Virus record (IMG/VR): IMGVR_UViG_3300050121_000130
Coordinates: 1-53,090 of that record
Direction: 5' to 3' (one strand)
Source of the DNA: a virus
Lineage: Duplodnaviria; Caudoviricetes
DNA: 53,090 nt
The first letter of the stretch is position 1, and every line of letters starts with the position of its first letter. The translations under genes and the position numbers were made by a program. Of the stretch, positions 1-47,361 are shown in pieces. Under the pieces are notes generated by a model that had not been told where the DNA came from, did not search any database, and worked only from the letters and a program-made list of their open reading frames with translations.

Positions 1-126
1 GAAGTGCTTTATGTCAGGAAAAATGAAAAGCCCAGTAATGAGATAGCGCGTCTCGCCGGTGCCAGGTTCGTACTCGCCAGCGAAGGCGAAAAAGGCAAGA
101 GATTAGACGAACCACTTGTAAAAAAG
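1..126. repeat. Terminal direct repeat (circular overlap), left copy
   Basis: 1-126 identical to 52938-53063; implies a circular unit of 52,937 bp. Confidence 0.97.
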
Positions 127-720: not shown

Positions 721-721
721 A

Positions 722-831
722 ATTGTTGGATTGTTGGATATTTAAGGTCTTTTTTGTAACTTAGCCTCGTGTAAATATATATATATTATATAGTTTCAAA
801 AATAGACCTCATATTCCAACAAACCAACATT
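722..831. other. Putative replication origin
   Basis: About 33-bp imperfect inverted repeat with paired TGTTGG/CCAACA units flanking an AT-rich (TA)n core, directly downstream of the primase-helicase. Confidence 0.6.
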
Positions 832-969
832 TAAAAAATTGAAGGAGTGTTTTTAAAAAATGAACAATGACAAAATTATTCAAAATATTCCGGCCCCGAG
901 TAATTTATATTGCGTTTATAATGGTGTTGATAACAAAAAGGAAATTGAATCAAAAGTTGTTTGTTTAGG

Positions 970-1302
970 ATGACGGAACAATTTGCTCCAATTTTAAAGA
1001 AATTAGATATCATGGATGATCCGTTAATCTTAGGATCACAATTATCAAATTTACTTGGCGGCACCGACTCCGAAATGTGGATTAAGTTATTTATAGCTGC
1101 CGATAAAATAAATCCTGATTTTGCCGCGAGATTAATGTACATGAGGAATAGTGGGTGCAGATTGCAGCCACACACGGATTTTAAATATAAAATAATGCCG
1201 ATCAAAGCGCTTTGGGAGTCAGAGGATTTTTATAATCAAGAAAAACAGTGTTTAATGGATTTCAGGGATGAGTTAACGGAGTTATTGGGAGGGTTGAAAT
1301 GA
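970..1302 (+). CDS. Hypothetical phage protein
   Basis: ORF overlapping the next start (ATGA coupling). Confidence 0.75.
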   Translation: MTEQFAPILKKLDIMDDPLILGSQLSNLLGGTDSEMWIKLFIAADKINPDFAARLMYMRNSGCRLQPHTDFKYKIMPIKALWESEDFYNQEKQCLMDFRDELTELLGGLK

Positions 1303-2036
1303 ACGAATTACCGAAAGTATTTAATTATCAAAACACAGAAGTTAGAACGGTTATTAAAAATAATGAACCTTGGTTTGTGGCAAAAGACATTTGTGATGTT
1401 TTAGAATTAGAAAATAGTAGACAAGCATTAAGCAGGATATCCGACAAACATAAGGGTGTATCTATTAATGACACCCTTGGTGGAAATCAGGAACTTGCAA
1501 TAATTGATGAACCGGGTTTATATAAACTGATTTTTACCAGCCGTAAAAAAGAAGCCGAACAATTCCAAGATTGGGTTTACGAAGAAGTCCTTCCATCGAT
1601 TCGAAAAACAGGTCAATATGGTACTCCTGAGTTTTTAGGTAAAATGCACGATTCAATGAATAAAATTCGTAATTTAAGTTGGCATGAAACAAAAAGCATA
1701 AAAAAGCAGCATATATCCGAAAACTTAGCCAAACTTAAAAAATATTATTTTTCATTAATTGATTCTGACGCTGAAAACGAACCCAATCCATTTGAAACTT
1801 TTGTAAAAGATCGTTGTACGTTCGACGAAAACTCAACAATCGACAGACGGCAATTATACGATGGGTATATTCGGTGGTGCTGCGACAATAATGTTTATCC
1901 AAAATCAAAAATTAAGCTTACTGATTATTTAAATCAAATAGACGGGGTTGCTTATTTTGGGGCTGATTCAAAGCATCTGTTGCATCAAAGATTTACTGGG
2001 ATTAAATTAAATCAAAAAGGATTGGGGCTGAGTTAA
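1299..2036 (+). CDS. BRO-N domain protein (antirepressor-like) with C-terminal D5/primase-type winged helix
   Basis: FNYQNTEVRTV...PWFVAKDICDVL...IDEPGLYKLIFTSRK...FQDWV..EVLPSIRKTG is BRO-N; C-terminus FVKDRC..LYDGYIRWC..FTGIKL. Confidence 0.88.
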   Translation: MNELPKVFNYQNTEVRTVIKNNEPWFVAKDICDVLELENSRQALSRISDKHKGVSINDTLGGNQELAIIDEPGLYKLIFTSRKKEAEQFQDWVYEEVLPSIRKTGQYGTPEFLGKMHDSMNKIRNLSWHETKSIKKQHISENLAKLKKYYFSLIDSDAENEPNPFETFVKDRCTFDENSTIDRRQLYDGYIRWCCDNNVYPKSKIKLTDYLNQIDGVAYFGADSKHLLHQRFTGIKLNQKGLGLS

Positions 2037-2363
2037 TTGCCAGTAAAACGCATTTCGATATTTTGTCAAATGTGTCACGTAATGATGGAGTATAAAAAAC
2101 CGCCTGATGATTTTTATAAATGCCCAATATGCGGATTTGAAGGTTGGCCGGGCGATACAATAACGCCAACTGATGATGAAGTATCAAAACTAATGCGAGA
2201 AATGGCACCGACACATAAACCCAAAGAGTGTTTACCGGCTGGAGGTCCAATATTAAAAGGCGGAAGTAAATCAAAGGTTGGCAAGAACGAGAAAATGAGC
2301 AAGAAAACATTAAGCCAAATAAACCAAGGATTAAACGGTAAATGCAGTAGTTTTGACAACTAA
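2037..2363 (+). CDS. Zinc-ribbon protein
   Basis: CQMC...CPIC; last gene before the late promoter. Confidence 0.7.
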   Translation: MPVKRISIFCQMCHVMMEYKKPPDDFYKCPICGFEGWPGDTITPTDDEVSKLMREMAPTHKPKECLPAGGPILKGGSKSKVGKNEKMSKKTLSQINQGLNGKCSSFDN

Positions 2364-2367
2364 ACGA

Positions 2368-2396
2368 TTGCATTAATTTGACAGATACCTTATAAT
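2368..2396 (+). promoter_or_regulatory. Sigma-A type promoter (putative late promoter)
   Basis: TTGCAT-17 bp-TATAAT. Confidence 0.7.
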
Positions 2397-2439
2397 ATAG
2401 TTAATTGGTCTGCAAGTTAGAAACAATGTTATGTAAACA

Positions 2440-2471
2440 AAGCCCGTCCTAAATTGGATGGGCTTATTTTT
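2440..2471 (+). terminator. Intrinsic terminator
   Basis: AAGCCCGTCC/GGATGGGCTT stem plus ATTTTT. Confidence 0.75.
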
Positions 2472-2519
2472 ATATCTAAAATTATACTTGGCAGTGACCT
2501 AATGGCACTGACCATAATT

Positions 2520-2618
2520 ATATTGGCGCGGCGTGGTGGTGCAACCATACTATGGAGTTATCTTGCATAGCCTTAACGGGCGCGGAAGTCAAGCAGGTTC
2601 AAATCCTGTCGCCAATAT
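2520..2618 (+). ncRNA. tRNA-like RNA or degenerate tRNA
   Basis: Acceptor-like helix ATATTGGCG/CGCCAATAT and canonical T-arm GCAGG-TTCAAAT-CCTGT; D and anticodon arms non-canonical; no CCA. Confidence 0.55.
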
Positions 2619-2630
2619 TATAATCATTAC

Positions 2631-2658
2631 AGCCGTCTATTTCAGATGGCTTATTTTT
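2631..2658 (+). terminator. Intrinsic terminator
   Basis: AGCCGTCT/AGATGGCT stem plus TATTTTT. Confidence 0.7.
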
Positions 2659-2672
2659 ATATCTAATCGGAG

Positions 2673-2891
2673 GTGCCCATCATGATATCTCATTGCGCTG
2701 ATACTGAATGTGAATTTTATAATCCTGATGGTTGTACGGCCAGCGAGATACATCACACCTCTGATAGATTCTGTACTGCTGGGAGACGAAAGCCACGCGA
2801 TTTCACCAAGGAGCTGATGGACCATTTTAATTCAGGCTGCCATCGTGGTGGGGGTAAACATAAATCGAACAAAATTAAATTGAGGAAATAA
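2673..2891 (+). CDS. Small Cys-rich protein
   Basis: C-x4-C-x7-C...C pattern; GGAGGTG RBS suggests the true start is the downstream ATG. Confidence 0.65.
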   Translation: MPIMISHCADTECEFYNPDGCTASEIHHTSDRFCTAGRRKPRDFTKELMDHFNSGCHRGGGKHKSNKIKLRK

Positions 2892-3009
2892 GCAATAAGG
2901 TTTAGACAATAGGCTGCTGAAGTGATTACAAAATTTTCAGCGTGAAACTCGTTGAACTGTGGGTCTCTGATCGGCTACACCACGAGATATAACTCCTCTG
3001 AATTCTGAC

Positions 3010-3055
3010 GGGTCCTTCCTGAGGGGGCGGGGCGCACACAGGTCGCACACCCCTC
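3010..3055 (+). other. Putative cos (packaging) site
   Basis: GGGTCCT (same as lambda cosQ) followed by a GC-rich segment bounded by GAGGGG/CCCCTC, just upstream of a Nu1-like small terminase and gpA-like large terminase. Confidence 0.6.
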
Positions 3056-3114
3056 GATTATTTCCTCTGAAAAATTATAAAATTTTGCCTTACATTACGA
3101 CAACAGGTGATGAT

Positions 3115-3645
3115 ATGGAAAATTCAAATTTAGATAAAGAAGAAAAAAACGCTTCAAATAATGATTTCATTTTTGGCACAACTCAGACTTGTGATTTTTT
3201 TAGTGTTTCCCGTGACACTTTGTCAGTTTGGGCAAAACAAGGATGTCCGAAAATTGACCGCGGTAAGTGGAATATAAAAGAAGTGATGAACTGGCGCGGT
3301 CGAACTGCGCTTGCCGGAAAAGTGGTAGAAGTAAGTAATGAGTTTAGAAAGTTAAAGGCTGATGCTGATATTAAAGAATTAAAAGCCGAAAAAGAAGAAA
3401 TAACGCTGGCTGTGTTGCGGGGTGAATTCATAAACAAAGAGGAGGTGGACAGGCAATGGTCAGTAATTGGAAATCAGTTGAAAAACAATTTGTTGTTATG
3501 GTCCAGAACACTGGCTTCAGAACTTGCCCACTTAGATATGCGGTCGGTAGAGAAAGTGTTGACTGATGCTACCTATGACCTCCTTGAACAGCTCTCCAGC
3601 ACAAGCCATTATAAGAAAAGCAAGAAGAAAAAGAATCTTAATTGA
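3115..3645 (+). CDS. terS: Terminase small subunit (lambda Nu1-like)
   Basis: N-terminal wHTH (FSVSRDTLSVWAKQGCP..W), coiled coil, LRGEFI motif; precedes terL. Confidence 0.85.
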   Translation: MENSNLDKEEKNASNNDFIFGTTQTCDFFSVSRDTLSVWAKQGCPKIDRGKWNIKEVMNWRGRTALAGKVVEVSNEFRKLKADADIKELKAEKEEITLAVLRGEFINKEEVDRQWSVIGNQLKNNLLLWSRTLASELAHLDMRSVEKVLTDATYDLLEQLSSTSHYKKSKKKKNLN

Positions 3646-5404
3646 ATTACCTTTAGCATTAAGATTAGCGCTCAAGCCGCCGGAAAGATTAACCGTTAGT
3701 CAATGGGCTGATAAAAATAGAGTGCTTGATAATATATCATCCAAGCCAGGTCCGTGGAAAACAAGTTTTGTGCCTTATACAAAAGAACCGATGGATGCGT
3801 TTACTAATAAAGAAATTGAACAAATTATTTTAGTTTGGGGAACCCAATCCGCAAAAACAGAATGTATAAACAACATGATTGGTTATGCGGTTGATCAAGA
3901 TCCTGGACCGGCCATGGTTGTATATCCTGAAGAAAAAACAGCAGAGTTTGCTAGTAATAAGCGGATTCAAACCATGGTTTTATCTACTGAATCGATTGCA
4001 CGAAAATTTAATACAAGAAGCAAGGTACTTGAACTCGATTTTATAGATATGTTTATTGCTTTAGTTAGTGCAAATTCTCCTTCACAATTGGCATCACGTC
4101 CTATAAGATATTTGTTTCGTGATGAAATTGACAAATATAATACCTGGTCTGGTGATGAGGCGAGTCCTTTAAAACTAACAAAGGAAAGAACAAAAGCATT
4201 TTCTTATAATCGAAAAATAGTAGATGCTTCAACACCTGTTACAAAAAACAAAAATATATGGCCAATGTATTTGTCTGCTGATGCCCGATATAAATATCAA
4301 ATTCCTTGTCCTCATTGTAAAACGATGCAGCCACTTGTTTTTAAACAGATAAAATGGCCAAAAGAAATTAACGACAGTTCGAAACTTGTTGAAGATGCTG
4401 CGTGGTATGAATGTTGCCATTGCAAAGAAAAAATTCACGATGGTCACAAACAAGCCATGCTTAGACTCGGAGAGTGGAAAGTAGAAAATAAAACAGTCGG
4501 CAGAATAAGATCTGTTGCCTATCATCTCAATTCTATTTATAGCCCGTTCGTTACTTTCGGGCAAGTTGCCAAAGAATTTTTAGAATCAAAAGATGAACCA
4601 AAAGATTTAATGAATTTTGTAAATTCGTGGCTTGCCGAACCGTGGGAAGCAAAAGGCAAACGTTATAAATCAGATACAATTTTAGAACATAAATCGTCAT
4701 ACAATCGCGGTAAAGTTCACCAATCATCGCAAATATTAGTCGCTGGTGTCGATGTGCAATTAGATCATTTCTGGTGGGGCGTTCGTGCCTGGGGACCTGA
4801 TATGACGTCGTGGTTAGTTGACTATGGTCGAACAGAAACTTGGACCGATATTGAAAAAATATTAAGACAACCTTATCCGATAAATGAAACAGGAGAAACG
4901 GTATTTATTAATAAGGCCTGTATCGATTCAGGATATAACACAGATGAGGTATATAAATTTTGTGCCTACAATCAGGATATTTGTGTGCCGACTAAAGGTT
5001 CTTCACGGCCACTTCGCTCCCGGTATGTCCAGTCGAAAATTGACAGAGACATTGCATTGGGATTGATTTTATATATTTTTGATCCGAATCAGTTTAAAGA
5101 TTTTATTGCCGGAAGATTAGCCCACGAAGTAAATGCACCAGGAGCGTGGATGTTGCCGGCCGATATTGATAAATTATATGCTGATCAAATTGTTGCCGAA
5201 CAAAAAGTCGAAGGTAAGTGGGAACCAATCAGCAGTCATGCACAGAATCATATGCTTGATGTTGAGGTTAATATTGCACTGGCAGCTGAATTGTGTGGAG
5301 TAAGGTATTTGTTGCCGGTTCCAGAAATGGTGGCACAGAAGCCAGAGGTACAGTCAGAAGCGAAACCATGGGTTGGAAATACGAATAATTGGATGAAGAG
5401 GTGA
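3566..5404 (+). CDS. terL: Terminase large subunit (lambda gpA family)
   Basis: PPERLTVSQWAD, GTQSAKTE Walker A variant, DEID, STP, CPHC, GVDVQ nuclease, IDSG. Confidence 0.96.
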   Translation: MLPMTSLNSSPAQAIIRKARRKRILIELPLALRLALKPPERLTVSQWADKNRVLDNISSKPGPWKTSFVPYTKEPMDAFTNKEIEQIILVWGTQSAKTECINNMIGYAVDQDPGPAMVVYPEEKTAEFASNKRIQTMVLSTESIARKFNTRSKVLELDFIDMFIALVSANSPSQLASRPIRYLFRDEIDKYNTWSGDEASPLKLTKERTKAFSYNRKIVDASTPVTKNKNIWPMYLSADARYKYQIPCPHCKTMQPLVFKQIKWPKEINDSSKLVEDAAWYECCHCKEKIHDGHKQAMLRLGEWKVENKTVGRIRSVAYHLNSIYSPFVTFGQVAKEFLESKDEPKDLMNFVNSWLAEPWEAKGKRYKSDTILEHKSSYNRGKVHQSSQILVAGVDVQLDHFWWGVRAWGPDMTSWLVDYGRTETWTDIEKILRQPYPINETGETVFINKACIDSGYNTDEVYKFCAYNQDICVPTKGSSRPLRSRYVQSKIDRDIALGLILYIFDPNQFKDFIAGRLAHEVNAPGAWMLPADIDKLYADQIVAEQKVEGKWEPISSHAQNHMLDVEVNIALAAELCGVRYLLPVPEMVAQKPEVQSEAKPWVGNTNNWMKR

Positions 5405-5433
5405 AGTGATAAATACCAAATAGATTTCACAAA

Positions 5434-5652
5434 ATGATTTTAATATCAAGAACGGGTATTGGACTTTATTGCGATCAAGCCAGAGAGTTAATGTATTGGG
5501 TTTTTGATGAAAATAATCGGATAAAAAGATATAAATTAATTAAAATTGCTGAAAAAACAGAACGATTATATCGAAAATCTCACAGATGGGATTTGGATAA
5601 CAAACAATGGTTTGAAGATTTACCTAAGCAAATAGACTATTCCAATATTTAG
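5434..5652 (+). CDS. Hypothetical protein inserted after terL
   Basis: ORF followed by a terminator-like hairpin; possible upstream ATA start at 5413. Confidence 0.55.
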   Translation: MILISRTGIGLYCDQARELMYWVFDENNRIKRYKLIKIAEKTERLYRKSHRWDLDNKQWFEDLPKQIDYSNI

Positions 5653-5709
5653 TAATTTCGTCGCCAATAGGCGATTATTTTTATGTTTGAAAGGATGAGA
5701 TAAAATATC

Positions 5710-6075
5710 ATGACAAATAAAACGAAACTAGAAGCACCAATCGAAGTGGAAACACCGGTCGAACACGCTATCGTAATTCTCAACGAAGCCTTTAAGCTCG
5801 ACTCACGTACCATCGATTGGCTAATTAATAATCGCGTGCCATGTCACTCTGAACTATCCAAACACTCTACGATTCAAGTCAGAACAATCCGAAAGAATCA
5901 GCCATTTGGTGGAACTGATCCAGTTAAGTATGAGGTTGGTATGCTGGATATTCTAAACGGTATCTTAGACAGTAACATTGCCGCTGATTACAGCGAAGAT
6001 ACTGGCAAGTTGATCGGCTTCAAGGAGGTGATACCACCATCGGATAAAAGCACGGAAGGAGAAACAAAAACATGA
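5710..6075 (+). CDS. Hypothetical protein
   Basis: RBS AAGGATGA; ATGA-coupled to the next gene. Confidence 0.75.
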   Translation: MTNKTKLEAPIEVETPVEHAIVILNEAFKLDSRTIDWLINNRVPCHSELSKHSTIQVRTIRKNQPFGGTDPVKYEVGMLDILNGILDSNIAADYSEDTGKLIGFKEVIPPSDKSTEGETKT

Positions 6076-6365
6076 ATGAACCATTTCCAGCCGTAGAATC
6101 GCAAAATATTGCTCAACAAATGCTTGCCGCTGTCGAATCTGCAATACTTACACTGATAACAAGCAGCGAAGAAATCATGATTGATGGCCGTAAATACCGT
6201 AGAACTGATTTAAATAAACTAAGGGATATGCGTCAAAAACTTTATGAAGAGGTATTTTATGCTAATTTGTCAGCAGGCGCAACAACTCGCGCTTATGCCG
6301 CATGGCCGCTTCGAAAGGCAGGGATGCCGCCGTGGACTTCAATAGGACCGTGGAGCAACTTGTAA
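6072..6365 (+). CDS. Head completion protein (gpW-like)
   Basis: AVESAILTLI..EEIMIDGRKYRRTDLNKLR; position before portal as in lambda. Confidence 0.75.
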   Translation: MNEPFPAVESQNIAQQMLAAVESAILTLITSSEEIMIDGRKYRRTDLNKLRDMRQKLYEEVFYANLSAGATTRAYAAWPLRKAGMPPWTSIGPWSNL

Positions 6366-7852
6366 GTTATATATCACCCAAAGCTGCTTTCGAACGTCAT
6401 GCCTACCGCAAAGCTCTTGAAATCAAACACGCTCAGGAGGATAAGCAACGCAATTATGATGCCGGAATGATTGACAGGTTTAATAATCGTTGGAACGCAG
6501 CATGGGGCAGTGGCGAGTTGGTTGATAAACCTTATCGGCAGCGGTTACTGTTAATTGCCCGCGATCTCGAACGCAATAATGATTTTGCCAAATCAATTAT
6601 TTCGCCATTTGAACGTAATGTTGTAGGTTTGGGGTTTAATGTTCAAGCGAAAACAGATAGCGATGATCTCAATAATGAAATGGAAAGTATTTGGAACGAA
6701 TGGTGTGAACCTCAAAATTGCGATACAACTGGGCAATTAACATTTACTGAAATGATGCGAATGAAACTTCGAAGAACAATCGTTGATGGCGATATTGCCG
6801 CTATTGAGGTTTATGACTCAAAGTCTAAATTTATTCCTTATCGACTGCAACTTATTGAAGCGGATATGTTCGATGTTACTTTGTTCGAAAACTCCGATAC
6901 CGGAAATCGTATTTATAGCGGGGTGGAAGTGGATGAATATATTAGGCCCGTAGCTTACTGGTTCAGACAGTCAACACTAGATTATTACCTGTATAACGTC
7001 AAATCAGTCAGAATTCCTGCGGACCAGGTTAATCATTTATTTACAAAACAGCGGGTTACGCAGGTTCGCGGCATATCGCTGTTAGCGTCTTCGATGTCAT
7101 CCATACAAGATATTGGCGATTACATGGAAGCCGAACGGGTGAAAGCTCGAATATCCGCTTGTTTTTCCATGGCAGTAACTACGACACCGCAGGGGCTTGT
7201 TGGACGATCAGGGCAACAACCAGAAGATTACAAAAAGCATCGCCGTGATTATATGGAACCTGGCATGATCGAATATTTGTTGCCAGGTGAAGAAATGAAG
7301 ATTGCTTCACCGTCAGGAATAAATACAAACACCAAAGATTTCGTACAGACCAATTACCGTGCACTGTCTGCTGGACAAGGGCTTAGTTATGAATCAACTA
7401 GCCGCGATGTATCTCAGGTAAGTTATTCTTCTGCTCGACACAGTGCTTTAGAAGATCGAAAAACATATCAGCCCATACAACAATGGCTGATCAATCATTT
7501 TTGCCGAAAAGTTTATAAGCAAGTAATTATTTCAGCGGTGATGTCTGGGAGATTAAAAATCCCGGACTTTTTTACGCGCCAAAGTTATTATTTGCAGCAT
7601 AAATGGTTGCCGCCTGGATGGGATTGGGTAGATCCGCTCAAAGATGTGCAGGCCAGTAAAATTGAATACGGCATGGGGCTTACAACTTTAGAACAACTTT
7701 GTGCTGAACAGGGCAAGGATTATAAAGACATCCTCGAACAGCAAAAGAAAGAACGCGCAATGCTTAAAGATACTGGCATTGATATTGATGCCGCGACTGG
7801 CGTTGTGTCGGTAAAGGAGAATCGAGAAGATGAAACAAAAACGGACACTTGA
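6332..7852 (+). CDS. Portal protein, lambda family
   Basis: RNYDAG, ARDLERNN, NVVG.G, QVRGISLL, SYSSAR, GWDWVDPLKD; GTG start chosen by RBS (ORF open from 6302). Confidence 0.95.
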   Translation: MDFNRTVEQLVSYISPKAAFERHAYRKALEIKHAQEDKQRNYDAGMIDRFNNRWNAAWGSGELVDKPYRQRLLLIARDLERNNDFAKSIISPFERNVVGLGFNVQAKTDSDDLNNEMESIWNEWCEPQNCDTTGQLTFTEMMRMKLRRTIVDGDIAAIEVYDSKSKFIPYRLQLIEADMFDVTLFENSDTGNRIYSGVEVDEYIRPVAYWFRQSTLDYYLYNVKSVRIPADQVNHLFTKQRVTQVRGISLLASSMSSIQDIGDYMEAERVKARISACFSMAVTTTPQGLVGRSGQQPEDYKKHRRDYMEPGMIEYLLPGEEMKIASPSGINTNTKDFVQTNYRALSAGQGLSYESTSRDVSQVSYSSARHSALEDRKTYQPIQQWLINHFCRKVYKQVIISAVMSGRLKIPDFFTRQSYYLQHKWLPPGWDWVDPLKDVQASKIEYGMGLTTLEQLCAEQGKDYKDILEQQKKERAMLKDTGIDIDAATGVVSVKENREDETKTDT

Positions 7853-13277: not shown

Positions 13278-13855
13278 TGCTTACCGTTGATGTTTTAGAC
13301 GAAGCTGACCCTATTCTGGCATATTTGGCGGCTGAATACCCTAATTTAATTAGTAAAGCCGCGAAATCCACTGGTTATATGATGCAGAAGCAAATTAAGG
13401 CTGGTATTTTATCCGGTGCACCTGGTGGGGTTCCTTATGCGCCATTAATACCGCCGCCATTTCGACCTAGGCTCGATGAATTAACATCAGGGCATACAAA
13501 ACCCGATTATAAATTATTGGGCGCATTGGCACAAGCTACTGGATATCAGTACAAAGACGGTGTTCTTTTGGTTGGTTGGCTATCTGATTCAGCTGTTAAA
13601 ATTGGAGTCATGGAAGAAGAAGGCGCCGTAAAGCCATTCAATACTCAAATGAGACAGCAATTTCTTGAAGCTGGGTTACACCCATCCAAAAACAAGACTG
13701 AAGTTGTTATTCCAAAACGTGCAACCTATGCACCGATGTTTCGCATTTTAGCACCGCAAATAACGCCATATATTGCGGAAAAGTTGGACGAATATGAGAC
13801 AAAAGGTCTTCCCGATGTCACAAAAAACAAACGAAAATACTCCGTGAAGGGGTGA
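13277..13855 (+). CDS. Neck / tail completion protein
   Basis: Synteny; IPKRATYAP motif typical of virion morphogenesis proteins. Confidence 0.6.
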   Translation: MLTVDVLDEADPILAYLAAEYPNLISKAAKSTGYMMQKQIKAGILSGAPGGVPYAPLIPPPFRPRLDELTSGHTKPDYKLLGALAQATGYQYKDGVLLVGWLSDSAVKIGVMEEEGAVKPFNTQMRQQFLEAGLHPSKNKTEVVIPKRATYAPMFRILAPQITPYIAEKLDEYETKGLPDVTKNKRKYSVKG

Positions 13856-13859
13856 AAAA

Positions 13860-14333
13860 TTGCAAACATTAAGATTTGAATCCATTTTAGCCGTCTATAT
13901 ACCGGCACTGGTAAACAGTGTGGCAATAGACGGTTTTTGTATGGACAAATACGGTAAACCGCTGACGATTATGGAGGGCTTTGACGGTAAGAATCCACCC
14001 AAAGGAGCCGCTTGCCCCTACATGGCATTCACTGGATTCGTCAAGCAAGAAGGTGACGAAATAAGCGAATTTACATATCATTTGTCAACAATGTCATGCG
14101 TAAGTAATACCAGCACGACCACAAATGGAAACGTAATCAGTTATAACGGTTCAGCGGAATCCCGCGAATTATCGCAATTAATTTATGAATGTCTCTGTGA
14201 GGCCAGTCAGAACTATCCGATTGCTCATGCTAATACAACAGTTGATTCGTTTACATTCATTCCTCAGTTTCCGGGCTATTTGGATATTACATTAAAAATC
14301 CCCATTTGTATGGGTGGTCAAATTATATTTTAG
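13860..14333 (+). CDS. Putative tail terminator
   Basis: Position immediately before tail tube; size. Confidence 0.55.
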   Translation: MQTLRFESILAVYIPALVNSVAIDGFCMDKYGKPLTIMEGFDGKNPPKGAACPYMAFTGFVKQEGDEISEFTYHLSTMSCVSNTSTTTNGNVISYNGSAESRELSQLIYECLCEASQNYPIAHANTTVDSFTFIPQFPGYLDITLKIPICMGGQIIF

Positions 14334-26180: not shown

Positions 26181-26792
26181 TTGACTGACATAAAAAATTA
26201 TATTATTGCTCATAAAACTGCGATTATTATTATAGTCGCAGTTATTTTGTTGGCTGGCGCCTACTTTTTAGGCCGTAATCATGCAACTACAGCGGTAAAA
26301 GAAGCCGAGCCCGTTGTAGTGTCGCAGGATAACTCAACAAACGTTAATGCCCTGCAAAACCTTCTGAATATCGCTGAACAAAATGCCAAAGACCTTCAGG
26401 CTAAAATTGCCGCTATTCAAGCCGGTCACGCCACCCCAGTAGCAAATTATTATGTGACAGCTCCAACAGTAGAAAAAGCCGCCGATACTGTTCAGCAGCA
26501 GATCAAAAATAATGATCCCACATTGCCGCCTGCTGCGCTCGAAAAAACGGATAGGACTGTTGTCACGGCGATTACAAAAGATTCAACAGGTGCCACGTTG
26601 CCAGCCGATCAGCAGAAAGTAGAAGTGTATAAGATTGATCTGGACCATCACATTGAAGTCGGTGGTGGTGCTGGAATTATGAATGGTAAAGCCGTTGCCG
26701 TAGCGGCGGTGCAGTACAATACGAAAAATATTGCTTATGAGGTAGTCGGGAACAAAGATAGTGGTATTGGAATAGTGAAATATAGGTTTTAA
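26181..26792 (+). CDS. Envelope-spanning protein: N-terminal TM, coiled coil, C-terminal beta-strand anchor (candidate spanin)
   Basis: TM at about aa 14-31; LQNLLNIAEQNAKDLQAKIAAIQ; ends EVGGGAGIMNGKAVAVAAVQY...GIVKYRF. Confidence 0.65.
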   Translation: MTDIKNYIIAHKTAIIIIVAVILLAGAYFLGRNHATTAVKEAEPVVVSQDNSTNVNALQNLLNIAEQNAKDLQAKIAAIQAGHATPVANYYVTAPTVEKAADTVQQQIKNNDPTLPPAALEKTDRTVVTAITKDSTGATLPADQQKVEVYKIDLDHHIEVGGGAGIMNGKAVAVAAVQYNTKNIAYEVVGNKDSGIGIVKYRF

Positions 26793-26809
26793 TGTGGTAT
26801 AATAAAGCT

Positions 26810-26887
26810 ATACAACCACTTTAAGTGGTCCAAAACGACACACGCAAAAAAAGCACTCAGCCTGTAAATGGTTGAGTGCTTTTTTTA
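26810..26887 (+). ncRNA. Putative small RNA with its own promoter and terminator
   Basis: Extended -10 TGgTATAAT (26795-26803); hairpin ACCACT-TTA-AGTGGT then CCAAAAC; terminator 26846-26887. Confidence 0.55.
26846..26887. terminator. Bidirectional intrinsic terminator
   Basis: A7-GCACTCAGCC/GGTTGAGTGC-T7. Confidence 0.85.
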
Positions 26888-26934
26888 TGCCTAAAAATAA
26901 ATTTAAAATATCGCAATTATTTATATAAAATGTG

Positions 26935-26963
26935 TTGCTTTAAGTGTGTAGTTATAGTACAAT
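26935..26963 (+). promoter_or_regulatory. Sigma-A promoter of the accessory operon
   Basis: TTGCTT-17 bp-TACAAT with AT-rich upstream region. Confidence 0.7.
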
Positions 26964-27035
26964 ATAGACAAGAGGTAAGGGAAACCTCAAATAAACTGAG
27001 TCAGTCAGCATTGAGCGTGACTGCAAGGAGATAAA

Positions 27036-27287
27036 ATGAAAAAGTTTTATGCAGGAAAAAGCTATATGGGAACCAATTATACTTATGAGTCAGAATGCTG
27101 GTCAGCATACGCTTTCGGCAGCAAGGCCGAACGTGATGAATGGGTAGAAAAGAATGAATGGGATCAGAACACTAGCCAGTACGTCGCTGAAGCAGTTACC
27201 AGAACAGTAGCTTACAAAATTGCAGGTATCGACAGTAAATATAAAACACCAGTAGTGGAAGAAAATCGGTTGTCTTACAAATATTAA
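27036..27287 (+). CDS. Small hypothetical protein (accessory operon gene 1)
   Basis: AAGGAG RBS; AFGSKAERDEWV. Confidence 0.8.
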   Translation: MKKFYAGKSYMGTNYTYESECWSAYAFGSKAERDEWVEKNEWDQNTSQYVAEAVTRTVAYKIAGIDSKYKTPVVEENRLSYKY

Positions 27288-27299
27288 CATGGGGAATAA

Positions 27300-27353
27300 C
27301 GCAGAGTGACCGGGTTCGCCCGGTTAATGCGGCAAGCTGGTCACAAGCCCAGC
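27300..27353 (+). ncRNA. Twister ribozyme, type P5 permutation
   Basis: GCAGAGTGA-CCGGG(TTCG)CCCGG-TTAATGCGGC-AA-GCTGGTCACAAGCCCAGC: P1, P2, P4, pseudoknots GTGA/TCAC and GGC/GCC, conserved UAA cleavage loop. Confidence 0.88.
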
Positions 27354-27383
27354 GAAATAGACCGCGGCGAAGGAGCGAATAAA

Positions 27384-27590
27384 ATGGAATATGGCAAAGA
27401 TGATTTTATGGAAATGATTAAGGATTGGCAAACTGACAATTCGCCGGAATACGATGATTTAAAAATTGAAGAAGCAGAAATTAACGAAAATGGCAAATGG
27501 GAATCCATTGCAGAAGACGAGAAATGCACTTACTCGCTAACCGACGATGGCACCGGGAACATAGTCATAAATTACCTTGATACAAAATAA
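27384..27590 (+). CDS. Highly acidic 68-aa protein (possible DNA mimic)
   Basis: AAGGAG RBS; about 20 D/E versus 6 K. Confidence 0.8.
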   Translation: MEYGKDDFMEMIKDWQTDNSPEYDDLKIEEAEINENGKWESIAEDEKCTYSLTDDGTGNIVINYLDTK

Positions 27591-27636
27591 AACCAGCCGG
27601 GCATCGTCCCGGCTTTAATTTTAAGGAGGAAAACAT

Positions 27637-27978
27637 ATGAGCAGAAAACAAATATGGTTAAATCCACCGCTTGAACGTCTTGCCGAACAATGCGGACAGG
27701 CCAAAGGGCGCGATGGTAAATTTTCCGCTCGTTTGGGTGATATTGTGGAGCGTTACGAGGCTATTATGGCTAACACGCCCGTCCCAGCAATGACTGATGA
27801 AGAAAAAATGATACTCGGTGCCGCTGTATGTGGAAGTGTATTATCAACAATCACAATTAAATACTTGCATGAGGGTATATCTGATCTAGGTATCCCCGGC
27901 GCAATAGAGTTGGCGGAAAAGGTACAGGAGTGGACGGCTGCTGAGCGGATCGCTGCTATTGAATCATTAAAGGTATGA
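27637..27978 (+). CDS. Putative ribbon-helix-helix-like regulator
   Basis: AAGGAGG RBS; RKQIWL strand, helix, FSARLGDIVERY helix. Confidence 0.6.
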   Translation: MSRKQIWLNPPLERLAEQCGQAKGRDGKFSARLGDIVERYEAIMANTPVPAMTDEEKMILGAAVCGSVLSTITIKYLHEGISDLGIPGAIELAEKVQEWTAAERIAAIESLKV

Positions 27979-28511
27979 ATCTCCGTCTCAAACCAAAAAC
28001 CTGCGCTACATGTGGTGTGGGTTTTATCGGTGGTCCAACGGCCACATATTGCCCAACCTGCCGAGCTGAACGAATACGCCAGCATGATCGCGAGCGTCAT
28101 CAGCGCAAGCTTGCTGGACAACTCAGGCACATTGGATCAACTGATCTATGCTTAATTTGTGGCAAGTCATATGAGGTTGTAGGTGGAAATCAAAAATATT
28201 GTGAGCCTTGTTCGGTGGCTAAAACTAAAAGACACGCTCACGAGTTATGGCTTGCTGAATATTATGATGATCCAGTTAAACGTCAAAAATACCTGCAACG
28301 AGCTAGGCAATGGGCTGAATCGCATAAGGACCGGATGGCTGAAATATTGCGGAAAAGCTATAAACGCCATCTGGATGACATTAAAGATAAGCGCCGCAAA
28401 ATGTACGGCGTAAAATTAAGACCATTAGGGCGGACGGAAATCTGCCCGAAGTGTGGCAACGAGTTTATAGTTTGTGAACGCAACCAGAAATACTGCCCCA
28501 CCTGCAAATAA
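27975..28511 (+). CDS. Basic multi-zinc-finger protein
   Basis: Three CxxC...YCxxC units, Arg/Lys-rich. Confidence 0.75.
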   Translation: MNLRLKPKTCATCGVGFIGGPTATYCPTCRAERIRQHDRERHQRKLAGQLRHIGSTDLCLICGKSYEVVGGNQKYCEPCSVAKTKRHAHELWLAEYYDDPVKRQKYLQRARQWAESHKDRMAEILRKSYKRHLDDIKDKRRKMYGVKLRPLGRTEICPKCGNEFIVCERNQKYCPTCK

Positions 28512-28565: not shown

Positions 28566-29198
28566 TTATTTGGCTAGCGAAATAACATTATTTCCATTCA
28601 AACTGCGTTGATATATTTCACTTTGGTGATCGTCTACATACGAACTTATAAAATCGTACCAAATACCCATAGGGGTGCCGGAATAAGATTGATACCATAC
28701 TCCCATGCCAGTTACAGCCATAGAATATGTTAGCGCTTGATTAGATTGTTTTTCTATAAACGAACCTCCAGCTCCAAGCCTTGCAGTAGTAGTTTCGTTG
28801 ACGGTTATTTCTTTACCCGATTCTGGGTTTTTATCTAGTGGGCCATAACCAATAGTAATGCCGTTCTGATTATAGTCTGACTTTTCTAGTGGCAAAATTA
28901 AGCCATTAGATAAATTTACTATTATATGAAATTCTGATGAGACAATCGTTTTATCTAAACTAAACATATTATCAATAGACTGTGTATTTATAGCTTTAGT
29001 TGGACTCTTATAAAATATCTTCATTGCTACTTTTACTTTGTGATGTTCGTTTCCTTCGATAAATATCGGGCCGTAAACAATTGAATCAGTATCGACATAA
29101 TAGTCCTCCGACTGATTAGAGTAAACCCAGACATATTCCGCCGAACACGGCACAGCCATCATCATTAATAGGCATGCCAATATAATAACCTTTTTCAC
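28566..29198 (-). CDS. Secreted/periplasmic moron protein (possible superinfection exclusion)
   Basis: Sec signal MKKVIILACLLMMMAVPCSA; AAGGAG RBS; adjacent to attP. Confidence 0.75.
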   Translation of the reverse strand: MKKVIILACLLMMMAVPCSAEYVWVYSNQSEDYYVDTDSIVYGPIFIEGNEHHKVKVAMKIFYKSPTKAINTQSIDNMFSLDKTIVSSEFHIIVNLSNGLILPLEKSDYNQNGITIGYGPLDKNPESGKEITVNETTTARLGAGGSFIEKQSNQALTYSMAVTGMGVWYQSYSGTPMGIWYDFISSYVDDHQSEIYQRSLNGNNVISLAK

Positions 29199-29620: not shown

Positions 29621-30859
29621 TCACGGCTTCGCAAGGTTTAACTTGCGGAGCTTTTTTATTTTGCTAATCGGTTTGCTAATCTCTTTGCTAATCTTTTTCT
29701 TTCCAAACATATCATCCATTGCCGTAGCTGTTTCGTTTTGCATATCATTTGCAACGTGCTGGTAGTAGTTGGCTGTAAAACTAGACTTCTTATGGCGGAG
29801 CTTCTTCGATACAATTTTAACGTCAATTTTTTGTCTAAGGAGCAGGGTAGCGTGAGTATGTCGCATGTCGTGAATTCGAATAACAGGCAACTTCATCTTT
29901 TCTTTGTCTTCTTCTTTAATTTTTTCGTCATTATCAATTTTGATATTTTGATTCTTAATGAATTTTATGAAATCATGATAGAGCGAATTCGGATATAACG
30001 GCGATCCGTCTTCGTGGCAACACACATATTCTATTTTTTTAAAGCACGGACCGAGCTGTAATTTATTTAATTTTTGCTGTTTCAATTCATTTTCAAGAGC
30101 AAGAATAACAACATGTGGAATTGGTATGTATCCTTCACTGCTGTCTGTTTTTAACGGGCCGAGTTCTAATTGCTTTGTTTCTCTGTTCAAACTTAAACTG
30201 TTTCTAATAAAAGCCGATCTTTCTGCTAGATTTATATCTTCCCATCTAAGACCGCATATCTCGCCACGCCGTAATCCGCACAAAAACCCCAGCAGAGCAA
30301 CTATATATAAAGATGTAGGTTTGGCTAGGTCAAGAAACCTTTGAACCTCTTCTGGCGTATATACGGCATTATGCGGGGCGTTTCGTTTCGGTGAATCAAC
30401 AGATGCACACGGGTTTTTACTGATTAACTGCCAGTCAACCGCTTTATCTAATGCTTGTTTTAAAACTGAATATTGACATTGAACCGAAGTAGGCCGCAAA
30501 CCTCTTTCTCGCTCGGTGTTTAAATATTCCTTAATTTTTAACGGGCTTAGCTTTTCTAATTCGACACTACCGATAATTTTAATGATGTTTTTAATTTTAA
30601 AGCTATAGCTTGATGAGGTCCCTTCTCTCTTATCTGGCTTTATTTCAACATCAAGCCATTTGTTTAAAAAACTCTCAACGGTAGTTTTTTCCGAAAAAAC
30701 AACTTCCCCACGAGAATAATCGGTAATTAACTCTCTCTCTTTTCGTTGAGCATCACGCAAAGACGGACCAGCATTAATCCATTTTTGCTTTTTTTTGTTT
30801 TGAGCATCGCGGTAGGTAACTATTACAGAATAGTTATCGCCGCGTTTTTTTATTGCCAT
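29621..30859 (-). CDS. int: Tyrosine integrase
   Basis: GLRRGEICGLRW, LKT, RIHDMRHTHAT, LRH, YYQH; N-terminal arm-binding domain; GGAGG RBS before ATG 30859. Confidence 0.97.
   Translation of the reverse strand: MAIKKRGDNYSVIVTYRDAQNKKKQKWINAGPSLRDAQRKERELITDYSRGEVVFSEKTTVESFLNKWLDVEIKPDKREGTSSSYSFKIKNIIKIIGSVELEKLSPLKIKEYLNTERERGLRPTSVQCQYSVLKQALDKAVDWQLISKNPCASVDSPKRNAPHNAVYTPEEVQRFLDLAKPTSLYIVALLGFLCGLRRGEICGLRWEDINLAERSAFIRNSLSLNRETKQLELGPLKTDSSEGYIPIPHVVILALENELKQQKLNKLQLGPCFKKIEYVCCHEDGSPLYPNSLYHDFIKFIKNQNIKIDNDEKIKEEDKEKMKLPVIRIHDMRHTHATLLLRQKIDVKIVSKKLRHKKSSFTANYYQHVANDMQNETATAMDDMFGKKKISKEISKPISKIKKLRKLNLAKP
29660..29693. repeat. Integrase arm-type sites, right (inside int 3' end)
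   Basis: TTTGCTAATC x3 at 12-bp period (29660, 29672, 29684). Confidence 0.8.
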
Positions 30860-30982
30860 AGATAAACCTCCCTTTAAATAATAAAAAAACATAGCATCAA
30901 TAGTGGCTGCGATGTTTAGGTAAATAATCAATAGCGTCTACAATTTTTGATATATTTCGACATTCATTAACAAAAATAGAAG

Positions 30983-46971: not shown

Positions 46972-47361
46972 ATGAGAGAAATAAAGTTCCGAGCTTATGA
47001 TACAGTAAGCGAACAATTATTACCTGTAGAAGCAATAGATTTTCGCCAAGATTGTATATTACTTAACGAAGGAGATAACAGTCTTTCGGACACTTTTGAA
47101 ATGTTTGAATTAATGCAGTATACCGGATTAAAAGACAAAAACGGCGTGGATATTTACGAAGGGGATAATACAAGACGCTGGTTGAAAATAAGAAACAAAT
47201 GGGAAGAAGTACAACCCGGTGTAATTAAATGGATTCAATGCGTTTCAGCGTTTAAGTGCGTAGATAAAGACGGATTACTACACTGTTTTGACAACGGTCA
47301 TCTATATGAAGTCGTCGGCAACATTCACGACAATCCCGATCTGCTGGAGGCACAACCATGA
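46972..47361 (+). CDS. yopX: YopX family protein
   Basis: MREIKFRAYD...LMQYTGLKDKNGVDIYEGD...EVVGNIHDNPDLL. Confidence 0.92.
   Translation: MREIKFRAYDTVSEQLLPVEAIDFRQDCILLNEGDNSLSDTFEMFELMQYTGLKDKNGVDIYEGDNTRRWLKIRNKWEEVQPGVIKWIQCVSAFKCVDKDGLLHCFDNGHLYEVVGNIHDNPDLLEAQP

Follow-up and report, generated by a model that had tools for sequence, protein, structure and literature searches.

An AcrIE10-family anchor gene, variable small genes and a type-P5 twister ribozyme in a putative accessory operon of a Paenibacillus-type phage

What kind of genetic unit places a self-cleaving ribozyme between two small genes of a temperate phage and ends with genes for putative nucleic-acid-binding proteins? 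The question is raised by an island in a virus sequence of 53,090 nucleotides (the whole stretch that was analysed, hereafter the window), in which it lies between the late genes and the integrase gene (29624-30931, minus strand); the integrase gene and a repressor gene were both verified. The sequence-only reading of this DNA had seen an Acr-Aca-like anti-defence module in the island. Our analysis favours, with a probability of roughly 0.55, the view that a temperate Paenibacillus-type phage here carries an accessory operon which is built like an acr-aca operon, is anchored by an AcrIE10-family gene and carries a twister ribozyme between its cargo genes. The AcrIE10-family anchor, the variable cargo and the twister between the cistrons are the parts of the earlier proposal that we retain, whereas the ribozyme as an integral component, the strong promoter and the 'sRNA unit' are given up. 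Each part is of a known kind; their combination is undescribed.

The genes of the island and the elements between them are:

27036-27287, plus strand: ORF1, cargo gene 1, 83 aa, pI 6.26 (ORF call)
27300-27352, plus strand: type-P5 twister ribozyme (RF02684), found with the Rfam covariance model
27370-27375, plus strand: Shine-Dalgarno sequence AAGGAG of ORF2
27384-27590, plus strand: ORF2, cargo gene 2, 68 aa, pI 4.05, with its ATG at 27384
27595-27614, plus strand: GC-rich hairpin followed by TTTAATTTT, between cargo and regulator genes, terminator-like in the scan
27637-27978, plus strand: anchor gene, 113 aa, AcrIE10 family, phrog_14350 (PHROG E 1.6e-42)
27975-28511, plus strand: gene of a 178-aa basic protein, pI 9.63 (ORF call), with an ATGA overlap with the anchor stop

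The 83-aa ORF, the acidic 68-aa ORF, the hairpin between the latter and the 'RHH-like' gene, and a zinc-finger gene had all been listed from the letters of the sequence and were found at these positions.

Identity of the anchor and zinc-ribbon proteins

[quoted passage not shown] A profile of 22 anchor relatives matched AcrIE10 chains only among the PDB sequences (E 1.2e-7 to 2.5e-7), in an alignment which covers both domains (profile positions 11-115 with AcrIE10 chain residues 13-115). VIA-align yielded a Z value of 11.4 over 106 residues, compared with 4.9 for the next best match, at a sequence identity between anchor and AcrIE10 of 25-28%. Judged by this profile and by the modelled fold, the gene first described as 'RHH-like' is a sequence and fold homologue of AcrIE10. 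AcrIE10 is both an anti-CRISPR and an RHH autorepressor of its own operon, is co-transcribed behind another acr gene and contacts DNA through N8 and V28-T29 (PMC13530269); the invariant Asn9 and Phe29-Ser30 of the anchor family align with these residues. In the AF2 monomer model of the anchor, residues 1-9 form a coil, with no N-terminal strand. The gene is rare, as among 401 genomes of the family to which the genome of one related locus (L015) belongs it occurred in one, namely that genome itself.

The protein encoded by the overlapping gene was modelled with a pLDDT of 86.5 and contains three CxxC...CxxC zinc ribbons with conserved cysteines, joined by long helices. No PDB fold matched it at E<=0.001, relatives in BFVD came only from uncultured phages and carry automatic names (TM 0.33-0.46), and no toxin, Pfam, NCBIfam or PADLOC family was found above threshold. 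Prediction of a complex between anchor and zinc-ribbon protein gave a score of 0.00 and a mark of 0.32, a 'no answer' that is neutral either way.

RHH proteins are common antitoxins, and the two proteins might together constitute a toxin-antitoxin-like or life-cycle regulatory module to which the upstream genes are incidental. Such a pairing would agree with the ATGA overlap of the two genes, with their co-conservation in Paenibacillus-type loci and with the very basic character of the zinc-ribbon protein, which gives it the look of a nucleic-acid binder. However, the anchor occurs without the zinc-ribbon gene in Streptococcus prophages and in three further loci (L013, L014 and L016), it matches AcrIE10 over its full length, beyond the RHH region, and its neighbour matched neither a toxin nor a defence family in the Pfam, NCBIfam and PADLOC searches. 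We regard this explanation as very improbable.

A constant frame around exchangeable cargo

Comparison with 15 related loci revealed a largely constant frame consisting of promoter repeats, a two-hairpin leader, a hairpin in front of the anchor gene, the anchor and, often, a basic zinc-ribbon gene. In the window, the upstream part of this frame and the DNA before it comprise:

26775-26803, plus strand: promoter-like site GTGAAA-17-TATAAT with TG (10/12), overlapping the end of a 203-aa ORF
26844-26890, both strands: very strong bidirectional intrinsic terminator hairpin (A-run, stem, T-run)
26927-26963, plus strand: promoter with operator-like repeat, -35 TTGCTT at 26935-26940, 17-nt spacer, -10 TACAAT at 26958-26963
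26940-26951, plus strand: repeat word TTAAGTGTGTAG, with a degenerate copy upstream
26970-27035, plus strand: structured 5' leader with two hairpins and a Shine-Dalgarno sequence
26972-26988, plus strand: leader hairpin 1, GAGGT/ACCTC (minimum-energy fold)
26989-27000, plus strand: conserved single-stranded AAATAAACTGAG between the leader hairpins
27002-27023, plus strand: leader hairpin 2, CAGTCA/TGACTG (minimum-energy fold)
27026-27031, plus strand: Shine-Dalgarno sequence AAGGAG of ORF1

The island had been placed between lysis genes and the attachment site. Integrase and repressor genes are present; on the lysis side, the 203-aa ORF matched phrog_10797 and gave weak spanin-like matches, and the remaining upstream 'lysis' genes were without a PHROG match at 1e-5. 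The 'sRNA unit' counted as a member of the module looks like a promoter-like site followed by a terminator: positions 26806-26890 fold with -31.6 kcal/mol (z -5.66, 0/200 shuffles equal or better), the unit had zero Rfam matches, and a related metagenome contig (X3) lacks about 26796-26848 and has a loose end at 26849, uncovered parts of the stretch carrying no meaning for runs X2-X4 and X14. Its membership is not upheld, and the site at 26775-26803 is its putative start, of doubtful function. A comparable terminator stands 5' of the promoter in related loci; the hairpin at 26844-26890 most likely marks the end of the late/lysis-side operon that precedes it and shields the island.

The promoter of the island had been called a strong sigma-A promoter, which is at odds with its match to the consensus at 8 of 12 positions; this value lies under the threshold of the promoter scan, which did not list it. 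Support comes instead from its position, which is the same in 10 Paenibacillus-type loci. Promoter repeats with a period of 12 nt that overlap the -35 element are present in 12 loci, including two Streptococcus prophages, and are direct rather than inverted. Across these 12 loci the self-similarity of the promoter at lag 12 averages 0.50, compared with about 0.30 at other lags; the window itself reaches 0.33 at this lag and 0.49 at lag 14. The repeat word covaries with the putative N-terminal strand of the anchor, KQIW or KHIW going with TAAGTGT, KTVW with TAAGTAT, KTIW with TAACTA and KSIY with AAGGT. When viral contigs were scanned with the promoter word, 19 stretches were returned, of which two were real and lay on contigs already known, and zero new loci were obtained.

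Both leader hairpins proposed earlier are present in the minimum-energy fold (-16.6 kcal/mol, z -2.85, 1/200 shuffles equal or better), and the two-hairpin fold was found in 11/12 leaders. Five of the six pairs of hairpin 2 are changed on both sides across the 12 loci in a compensatory manner. Hairpin 1 persists by register shift, with one 5' strand and differing 3' partners, so that a single consensus structure is unable to express the leader. No Rfam family matched the leader, which may represent an undescribed cis-regulatory RNA.

The genes at the front of the operon belong to several unrelated families of small, mostly acidic proteins across the related loci. BLASTP clustering sorted 28 ORFs upstream of the anchor into 16 groups, and the gene immediately 5' of the anchor alone falls into nine groups over 16 loci. 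Invariant gene content had been named beforehand as a finding that would speak against an Acr-Aca-like module; the opposite was seen. One related locus (L004) is identical to the window from the middle of ORF1 to the first anchor codons, while the remainder of its anchor has diverged (60% identity for the anchor), and in two other metagenome runs the contigs retain the cargo of the window, from which they depart at 27623 and 27677. The cargo/anchor boundaries show mosaic exchange.

ORF1 is nearly an orphan, with three homologues at E<=0.001 in a collection of 5.8 billion proteins, no match in Pfam, NCBIfam, PADLOC or the PDB sequences and scores below the lead level in the Protein Atlas, where RRM-like structures stayed under the bar. 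ORF2 belongs to a small domain family with 66 representative clusters at E<=0.001, in which the domain stands alone or is C-terminal; the Protein Atlas provided nothing usable for it. On other phage contigs, ORF2-like genes are followed by an HTH_59 gene or a 57-aa gene or are fused behind an RHH-like N-terminus, and the family was found in two further operons of small genes plus regulator; in one locus (L031) the -35 element lies within a perfect inverted repeat of 12 bp, and an ORF2-like gene is accompanied by an HTH_59 gene (68 bits). The cargo proteins had zero matches in Pfam, PHROGs, NCBIfam and the PDB sequences, which include the solved Acr proteins, and no match in PADLOC, the scope of which is defence and not anti-defence. 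The description of the cargo as small acidic genes holds for ORF2 and fails for ORF1, with its pI of 6.26; the other cargo proteins have pI values of 4.05-4.94 in 9/9 measured cases. Taken alone, the hairpin at 27595-27614 is unremarkable (z -1.57, 15/200 shuffles equal or better); a hairpin precedes the anchor in 12/13 loci, with differing stem sequences. It is probably a leaky terminator or a stabiliser.

The cargo could also be imagined to serve purposes unrelated to counter-defence, in an RHH-controlled accessory ('moron') operon the likeness of which to acr-aca operons would reflect the general wiring of small accessory genes. Its proteins might then act in host takeover or superinfection exclusion, or be defence or fitness factors encoded by the prophage. 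None of them could be assigned to a known family, and the locations agree with such roles: the locus of the window lies between late genes and integrase, and the anchor locus of the Streptococcus prophages adjoins the lysin gene near paratox, a prophage region that typically carries lysogenic-conversion genes. Another locus (L012) has PAPS_reduct/DUF3440 and ParB_N-like genes ahead of the anchor in place of small acidic ones. Against this explanation stand the homology of both anchor domains to AcrIE10, which is proven to act as an anti-CRISPR and as an Aca, the cargo itself, which is small, strongly acidic and swapped among phages, the signature used for finding anti-defence genes, and the recurrence of the ORF2 family beside other small regulators. 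We consider an operon with cargo of this other kind possible but rather unlikely, and favour the acr-aca-like operon.

The twister ribozyme between the cargo genes

The Twister-P5 model matched between the 83-aa and 68-aa ORFs with 61.3 bits (gathering threshold 37.6, E 2.1e-10) over model positions 1-58 of 58, which confirms the twister claimed earlier. RF02684 is the sole Rfam family above its gathering threshold in the whole window, and a twister match was found in 0/14 control genomes. Stems P1, P2 and P4 consist of standard pairs throughout the Rfam alignment. The loop motifs GAGnG and UCnC, which we take to be the partners of the twister pseudoknot, face each other at their variable position with a U-A pair in the window, and this position is Watson-Crick (U-A or G-C) in 17/17 twisters, of 19, for which both sides were found by regular expression. 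A UAA after the closed P1 hairpin puts a U-A cleavage dinucleotide into the junction adjoining P1. The scissile bond is predicted to be U27325/A27326, as set by the Rfam alignment together with the rule, taken from a review, that twisters are cut at the U adjoining P1, before a conserved A (PMC5408937).

The ribozyme is separated by 12 nt from the stop codon of ORF1 and by 31 nt from the start codon of ORF2. The distance from the preceding stop codon to the twister is -10 to +18 nt in the 17 of 19 phage and prophage twisters for which it was measurable; the next start codon preceded by a Shine-Dalgarno sequence follows 10-31 nt after the twister end and 42-60 nt after the cut, each in 15/16 cases. 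The AUG of the twister core, two bases past the cut, was considered as a leaderless start and rejected, being open and in frame in 3/16 cases, which is about chance. On other phage contigs twisters likewise lie between small ORFs, with up to seven in one array; of ten array ORFs, none matched Pfam and two matched a PHROG, both of unknown function. One cargo family of the related loci (B) is homologous to the ORF directly 5' of a twister in locus L024 (E 5e-18), which points to a shared gene pool; another (A) showed no similarity to the 92-aa ORF before the twister of L016. In that locus, from a Veillonellaceae genome, a 92-aa ORF, a twister, an ORF of about 57 aa, a hammerhead ribozyme, two genes and the anchor follow each other on one strand, with twister and hammerhead within 220 nt.

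Twisters were found in 3/16 anchored loci, which represent two independent cassettes, and L015 has two cargo genes and no ribozyme. The twister, missing from 13/16 anchored loci, does not belong to the system in general, and its earlier description as an integral part does not hold. Possibly it has no part in regulating this operon and travels with gene cassettes as a passenger, tolerated between genes, whether as a remnant or as a selfish or mobile element. Its rarity in anchored loci fits a passenger, as does its absence before the ORF2-like genes of four other loci, and a 156-nt contig from an RNA library, which may be DNA, runs uncut over 27230-27385. Reviews still call the biological role of bacterial twisters elusive (PMC6765202; PMC5408937). 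On the other hand, the twister core is intact and high-scoring with covarying loop pairs, and the regular placement of twisters just past a stop, with the next ribosome site 10-31 nt further on, together with the arrays of up to seven copies, argues for selection on position. A mere passenger appears unlikely to us.

Proposed mode of action and comparison with known systems

The acr-aca-like operon would be read in the order terminator, repeat-bearing promoter, two-hairpin leader, exchangeable cargo, weak terminator hairpin, RHH protein and translationally coupled zinc-ribbon protein. By analogy with AcrIE10, the anchor may bind the promoter repeats and repress its own promoter, and the hairpin in front of it could hold the level of the regulator under that of the cargo proteins, which would target host functions, most likely defence systems. 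Cleavage by the twister at U27325/A27326 would give two messages: that of ORF1, closed by the GC-rich hairpin P1 and a terminal cyclic phosphate, and that of ORF2 and the regulator, which would begin with a 5'-OH and always have the same leader of 58 nt. In this way the stability and translation of one could become independent of those of the other. The ribozyme might then act as a natural insulator with which a cassette works regardless of the upstream sequence. Synthetic ribozyme insulators such as RiboJ provide a fixed short leader independent of upstream sequence. More broadly, and with considerable doubt, one can speculate that the genes associated with twister and hammerhead ribozymes, which have lacked an explanation for more than ten years, are exchangeable phage counter-defence or accessory cassettes, each freed from its upstream neighbour by a ribozyme that leaves a standard 42-60-nt leader, and that in operons like the present one an AcrIE10-type sensor-repressor governs the entire array. 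If this were true, ribozyme positions would mark new anti-defence genes.

The glmS ribozyme offers an analogy, as a cut in an intercistronic or 5' region alters what becomes of the RNA behind it; twister is not known to depend on a ligand. Gram-positive bacteria degrade the message that lies downstream of the glmS cut (PMC6765202), and decay of this type means that the twister cut could lower rather than protect expression of ORF2 and the regulator.

The closest known system is the acrIE9.2-acrIE10 operon of Klebsiella pneumoniae plasmids, with AcrIE10 structures 8JI9, 9M71 and 9M7T in the PDB (PMC13530269). The anchor has a similar length (113 aa, compared with 113-127 aa for the solved AcrIE10 chains) and likewise stands behind a small gene of the same operon, repeats overlap the promoter, and by analogy the anchor would be an autorepressor of the RHH type whose other domain binds a ligand or target. 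The loci described here belong to Gram-positive temperate phages instead of enterobacterial plasmids. Their repeats are direct with a 12-nt period, whereas the AcrIE10 operator is an inverted repeat with a 2-bp spacer; their upstream gene varies, whereas acrIE10 of Enterobacteria is paired with one fixed partner, AcrIE9.2 (PMC13530269), so that variable cargo is not an established property of the AcrIE10 family. The structured leader, the hairpin that precedes the anchor and the zinc-ribbon gene are additional, as is the ribozyme in the window. With classical acr-aca operons, which use the HTH repressors Aca1-10 or bifunctional AcrIIA1-type proteins in negative feedback (PMC13530269), they share a promoter with operator-like repeats, small variable acidic genes and a conserved, putatively DNA-binding gene in last place; they differ in that the regulator would be an RHH and not an HTH protein and that no cargo equals a known Acr. 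Besides enterobacterial plasmids, the range of AcrIE10-type, putative RHH regulators thereby takes in temperate Paenibacillus and Streptococcus phages and a Veillonellaceae genome, and the varied small acidic genes beside the anchor are candidates for new anti-defence proteins.

The ribozyme resembles the type-P5 twisters of bacteria and phages (RF02684) in its full model match and its surroundings of phage genes, and the twister of L016 within 220 nt of a hammerhead recalls the description of the twister class in reviews. It differs from known P5 twisters in that its flanking genes lie in a defined type of operon with a regulator of a known family. In the literature compared, to which the catalogues of ribozyme-associated genes by Roth 2014 and Weinberg 2015 do not belong, no self-cleaving ribozyme, twister included, was linked with anti-CRISPR or anti-defence loci. 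Reviews leave the role of bacterial twisters and hammerheads unexplained beyond adjacency to certain phage-related genes. The locus described here combines a high-scoring twister with a relative of the well-characterised regulator AcrIE10 and has natural comparison loci free of the ribozyme, and its defined promoter, leader and gene order make the role of the ribozyme directly testable. A twister in an acr-aca-like operon could help to explain what ribozymes of this kind do in bacteria.

Layout of the operon and its AcrIE10-family anchor

The operon ends in a gene of the AcrIE10 family and combines a conserved promoter-leader frame with swappable acidic cargo and an intact twister ribozyme between its cargo genes. 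The window is an IMG/VR viral record of 53,090 nt, and its nearest DNA matches are Paenibacillus larvae phages (7 of 7 records). A sequence-only reading had described an anti-defence island here, and all of its listed features are present, in a same-strand sequence block bounded by a 203-aa ORF on one side and an opposite-strand tyrosine integrase on the other.

Features of the operon and its surroundings (window positions)
Before the block: 203-aa ORF, phrog_10797, weak spanin-like hits
26775-26803: promoter-like site, overlapping the end of the 203-aa ORF
26844-26890: very strong terminator hairpin (z -5.66)
26935-26963: second promoter, TTGCTT-17-TACAAT
Before ORF1: leader with two hairpins (z -2.85)
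27036-27287: 83-aa ORF (ORF1, cargo), after the leader and before the twister
27300-27352: Twister-P5 ribozyme (Rfam), between the 83-aa and 68-aa ORFs
27384-27590: 68-aa ORF (ORF2, cargo), after the twister, with its own AAGGAG ribosome site
27595-27614: GC-rich hairpin, then T-rich sequence, between ORF2 and the anchor
27637-27978: 113-aa ORF (anchor), after the GC-rich hairpin
27975-28511: 178-aa ORF (zinc-ribbon gene), after the anchor, its ATG overlapping the anchor stop
28566-29198, minus strand: 210-aa ORF, between operon and integrase
29624-30931, minus strand: tyrosine integrase, phrog_1 (E 3e-67)

While the observation of these features was confirmed, the promoter strength and the "sRNA unit" proposed in that reading need correction. 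In a related contig from the metagenome run X3, the stop of the 203-aa ORF nearly adjoins the terminator; window segment 26796-26848 is missing, and the contig has neither the -10 box nor the first small hairpin of the supposed sRNA unit. The 210-aa ORF shows, by eye, a hydrophobic N-terminus resembling a signal peptide, and a family search with it gave no hit over threshold; it may be a separate lysogenic-conversion gene.

The 113-aa anchor matched no Pfam or NCBIfam family and belongs to phrog_14350 (E 1.6e-42), for which PHROGs assigns no function. Foldseek comparison of its AlphaFold2 model (based on 22 relatives; pLDDT 86) with the PDB revealed AcrIE10 alone (four chains, TM 0.66-0.68; next hit E 2.9), and VIA-align, which is independent of Foldseek, gave Z 11.4 over 106 residues (next 4.9). 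A profile of the 22 relatives likewise retrieved AcrIE10 chains only (E 1.2e-7), with both domains covered. The earlier call of an RHH-like gene was a good one, as fold and sequence profile identify the product as an AcrIE10-family protein. AcrIE10 is described as an anti-CRISPR binding Cas7 of a type I-E* system, with relatives in Proteobacteria and Firmicutes that occur on plasmids, in prophages and in a few lytic phages (PMC11317147). Later work established it as the ribbon-helix-helix autorepressor of the acrIE9.2-acrIE10 operon, with an inverted repeat across -35 and -10 as operator and with N8 and V28-T29 named as DNA contacts (PMC13530269). In the phage proteins, Asn9 and Phe29-Ser30, which are invariant across the family, align with these AcrIE10 residues. 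The proposed autoregulator role of the anchor can now draw on a characterised relative.

Conserved frame and exchangeable cargo

Anchor homologues are rare, with 49 protein clusters in a collection of 5.8 billion proteins and carriage by 1 of 401 genomes within the family of one host. Using tblastn, the anchor was found in 15 phage records (7 Paenibacillus larvae phages and 8 Streptococcus prophages), and further loci were present in IMG/VR (9) and in genomes (2). We compared 16 anchored loci (the window, L001, L002 and L004-L016). The frame is conserved in the 12 whose upstream sequence is available and shows a promoter (10 Paenibacillus-type loci and 2 Streptococcus prophages). Their common order is a terminator, 2-4 tandem repeats of 12-nt period over the -35 box, the -10 box and the leader. 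Mean self-similarity at lag 12 was 0.50 versus about 0.30 at other lags; the signal of the window is weaker, with 0.33 at lag 12 and 0.49 at lag 14. Repeat words vary by group in step with the N-terminal strand of the anchor, which, from four classes only, would fit recognition of the repeats by this strand. Elsewhere in the window, the promoter repeat word is matched once more, at 47252-47265 within an ORF and with 2 mismatches; this is at chance level (at least 2 matches in 3 of 100 shuffles).

The leader matched no Rfam family. Its two-hairpin fold was found in 11 of 12 loci, with an A-rich, AAATAAACTGAG-like linker and the second hairpin adjoining the ribosome site. Of the 6 pairs in this second hairpin, 5 vary on both sides; in the first, the 5' strand is kept and its 3' pairing partners differ. 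The anchor is separated from the last cargo gene by a hairpin, differing in its stem, in 12 of 13 loci.

A basic zinc-ribbon gene lies 3' of the anchor in Paenibacillus-type loci and is absent from this position in the Streptococcus prophages, L013, L014 and L016. The RHH/zinc-ribbon pair could alternatively be read as toxin-antitoxin-like, a reading weakened because the zinc-ribbon gene is missing from several loci and because the likeness of the anchor to AcrIE10 extends along its whole length. In the Streptococcus prophages 315.1 (L005:1405-2288) and phiGBSVK-E1 (L006:319-1658), an anchor homologue of 38-41% identity sits beside lysin and paratox genes, with the same promoter repeats, a two-hairpin leader and an acidic 79-aa gene, and no zinc-ribbon gene.

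BLASTP clustering of the 28 upstream ORFs yielded 16 groups, and the gene adjoining the anchor upstream belongs to 9 different groups across the 16 loci.

Cargo groups
91-99-aa family: L001, L007, L010, L011, L013
134-141-aa family: L002, L008, L009, L015
79-aa family: two Streptococcus prophages
Cargo pair of the window: common to L004 only
Remaining cargo: singletons

All cargo proteins measured have a pI of 4.05-4.94 except ORF1 (pI 6.26). Cargo exchange is directly visible. From mid-ORF1, across twister, ORF2 and hairpin, to the first codons of the anchor, locus L004 matches the window exactly, yet the two anchors share only 60% identity; in DNA contigs from two other metagenome runs, the cargo is retained at ≥99%, with divergence setting in at 27623 and 27677. 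ORF1, with 3 homologues, is close to an orphan; the small domain family that includes ORF2 comprises 66 representative clusters. In other phage contigs, an ORF2-like gene follows a promoter carrying a perfect 12-bp inverted repeat and precedes an HTH_59 gene (L031, 2370-2950), or it precedes a 57-aa gene that is RHH-like by eye only and gave no Pfam hit (L033, 2396-2851, and L034); in L032 (1946-2701), the domain is part of a fusion whose N-terminus gave RHH hits below threshold. In L012 (2197-4342), the place of the small acidic genes before the AcrIE10-like gene is taken by a PAPS_reduct/DUF3440 gene and a ParB_N-like gene (match below the Pfam cut-off). As to function, the cargo proteins matched no known family, and an accessory operon whose cargo has no defence role remains an alternative.

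Twister ribozymes in the window and beyond

Rfam aligned the Twister-P5 model end to end over 27300-27352 with 61.3 bits (gathering score 37.6). It was the sole Rfam family above threshold across the whole window, was recovered in repeat searches and had no match in 14 control genomes. In the Rfam alignment, P1 is a closed hairpin (ACCGGG/CCCGGU, UUCG loop) followed by UAA. Twisters are reported to cleave after a less conserved U that abuts P1 and before a highly conserved A (PMC5408937), so the predicted scissile bond joins U27325 and A27326. At one loop-loop position the pair is U-A, and among 19 twisters examined it was U-A or G-C in all 17 with both sides regex-extracted. An uncut contig from an RNA library, possibly derived from DNA, covers 27230-27385 across the predicted site. 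The twister core holds ATG/GTG codons, which in the window are open in frame into ORF2 (27306-27590), so that gene callers yield a 94-aa ORF starting inside the ribozyme. N-terminal peptides like MRQAGHKP in called ORFs, recurrent in other twister loci, are merely translated ribozyme core.

Ribozymes were found by Rfam in 3 of 16 anchored loci, representing 2 independent cassettes. One is shared by the window and L004; the other, in a Veillonellaceae genome (L016, 1530-4363), comprises on one strand a 92-aa ORF, a twister (1809-1860, 54.8 bits), an ORF of ~57 aa, a type III hammerhead (2078-2131, 48.6 bits, barely above the cut-off of 48.5), two larger genes and the anchor. Here, the two ribozymes flank the ~57-aa ORF ~2 kb upstream of the AcrIE10-like gene. 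The twister does not belong to the common frame. The interpretation given in the sequence-only reading is partly supported: architecture and regulator family fit a putative acr-aca-type module, in which the ribozyme is occasional rather than defining.

Scanning IMG/VR for the twister core gave 13 contigs, and an Rfam check of 12 further loci confirmed 19 twisters, spread over 11 of them; the anchor was found among these in the L004 contig only. On L025, a 14.9-kb viral contig, seven Twister-P5 (50-66 bits; 21-6856, minus strand) span ~6.9 kb, each placed between small unannotated ORFs, and L019 carries three twisters within 1.4 kb. The genes of such arrays are small and unannotated. On L024, the ORF that immediately precedes a twister shares homology with the 134-141-aa cargo family found in anchored operons (E 5e-18). 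The gene right after this twister (13567-13971) and one right after a twister in L019 (1596-2462, with DUF5758) encode pentapeptide-repeat proteins. Pentapeptide-repeat proteins are known DNA mimics, and DNA mimicry would suit a counter-defence role.

Spacing was determined for 19 twisters (window, L016 and 17 non-duplicate examples). The distance from the preceding ORF stop to the twister start was -10 to +18 nt (17 of 19 measurable). From the twister end to the next start preceded by a Shine-Dalgarno sequence it was 10-31 nt in 15 of 16, and the downstream gene therefore keeps a leader of 42-60 nt, also in 15 of 16. The spacings of the window (12, 31 and 58 nt) are typical of the set. That the ribozyme is a passenger remains an alternative to a role in the operon.

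Proposed mechanism and relation to known systems

We propose that the anchor represses its own promoter via the repeats, that the weak terminator hairpin before it would hold regulator levels under cargo levels, and that the cargo may target host defence. Cleavage by the twister would divide the transcript into an ORF1 message and an ORF2-regulator message. The former, with the P1 hairpin as its 3' end, would be protected by the leader hairpins at the 5' end and by P1 and a cyclic phosphate at the 3' end. The latter would begin with a 5'-OH, 58 nt upstream of the ORF2 start. The effect on this downstream half could go in either direction: by the precedent of glmS in Gram-positive bacteria, the downstream message would decay faster (PMC6765202), and the regular short leader points to translation insulated from the upstream context.

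A literature search, with the original ribozyme papers and their supplements outside its scope, found no link of twister or hammerhead ribozymes to anti-CRISPR or anti-defence loci. Reviews describe that both ribozymes share associated genes for unexplained reasons, suggest processing of polycistronic messages and consider a link to phages likely (PMC6765202, PMC5408937, PMC5737381). Each component of the operon is of a known kind. New are the combination and the wider pattern, in which ribozymes punctuate small-gene arrays sharing cargo families with AcrIE10-anchored operons; together they give a concrete experimental handle on the old question of the role of these ribozymes.
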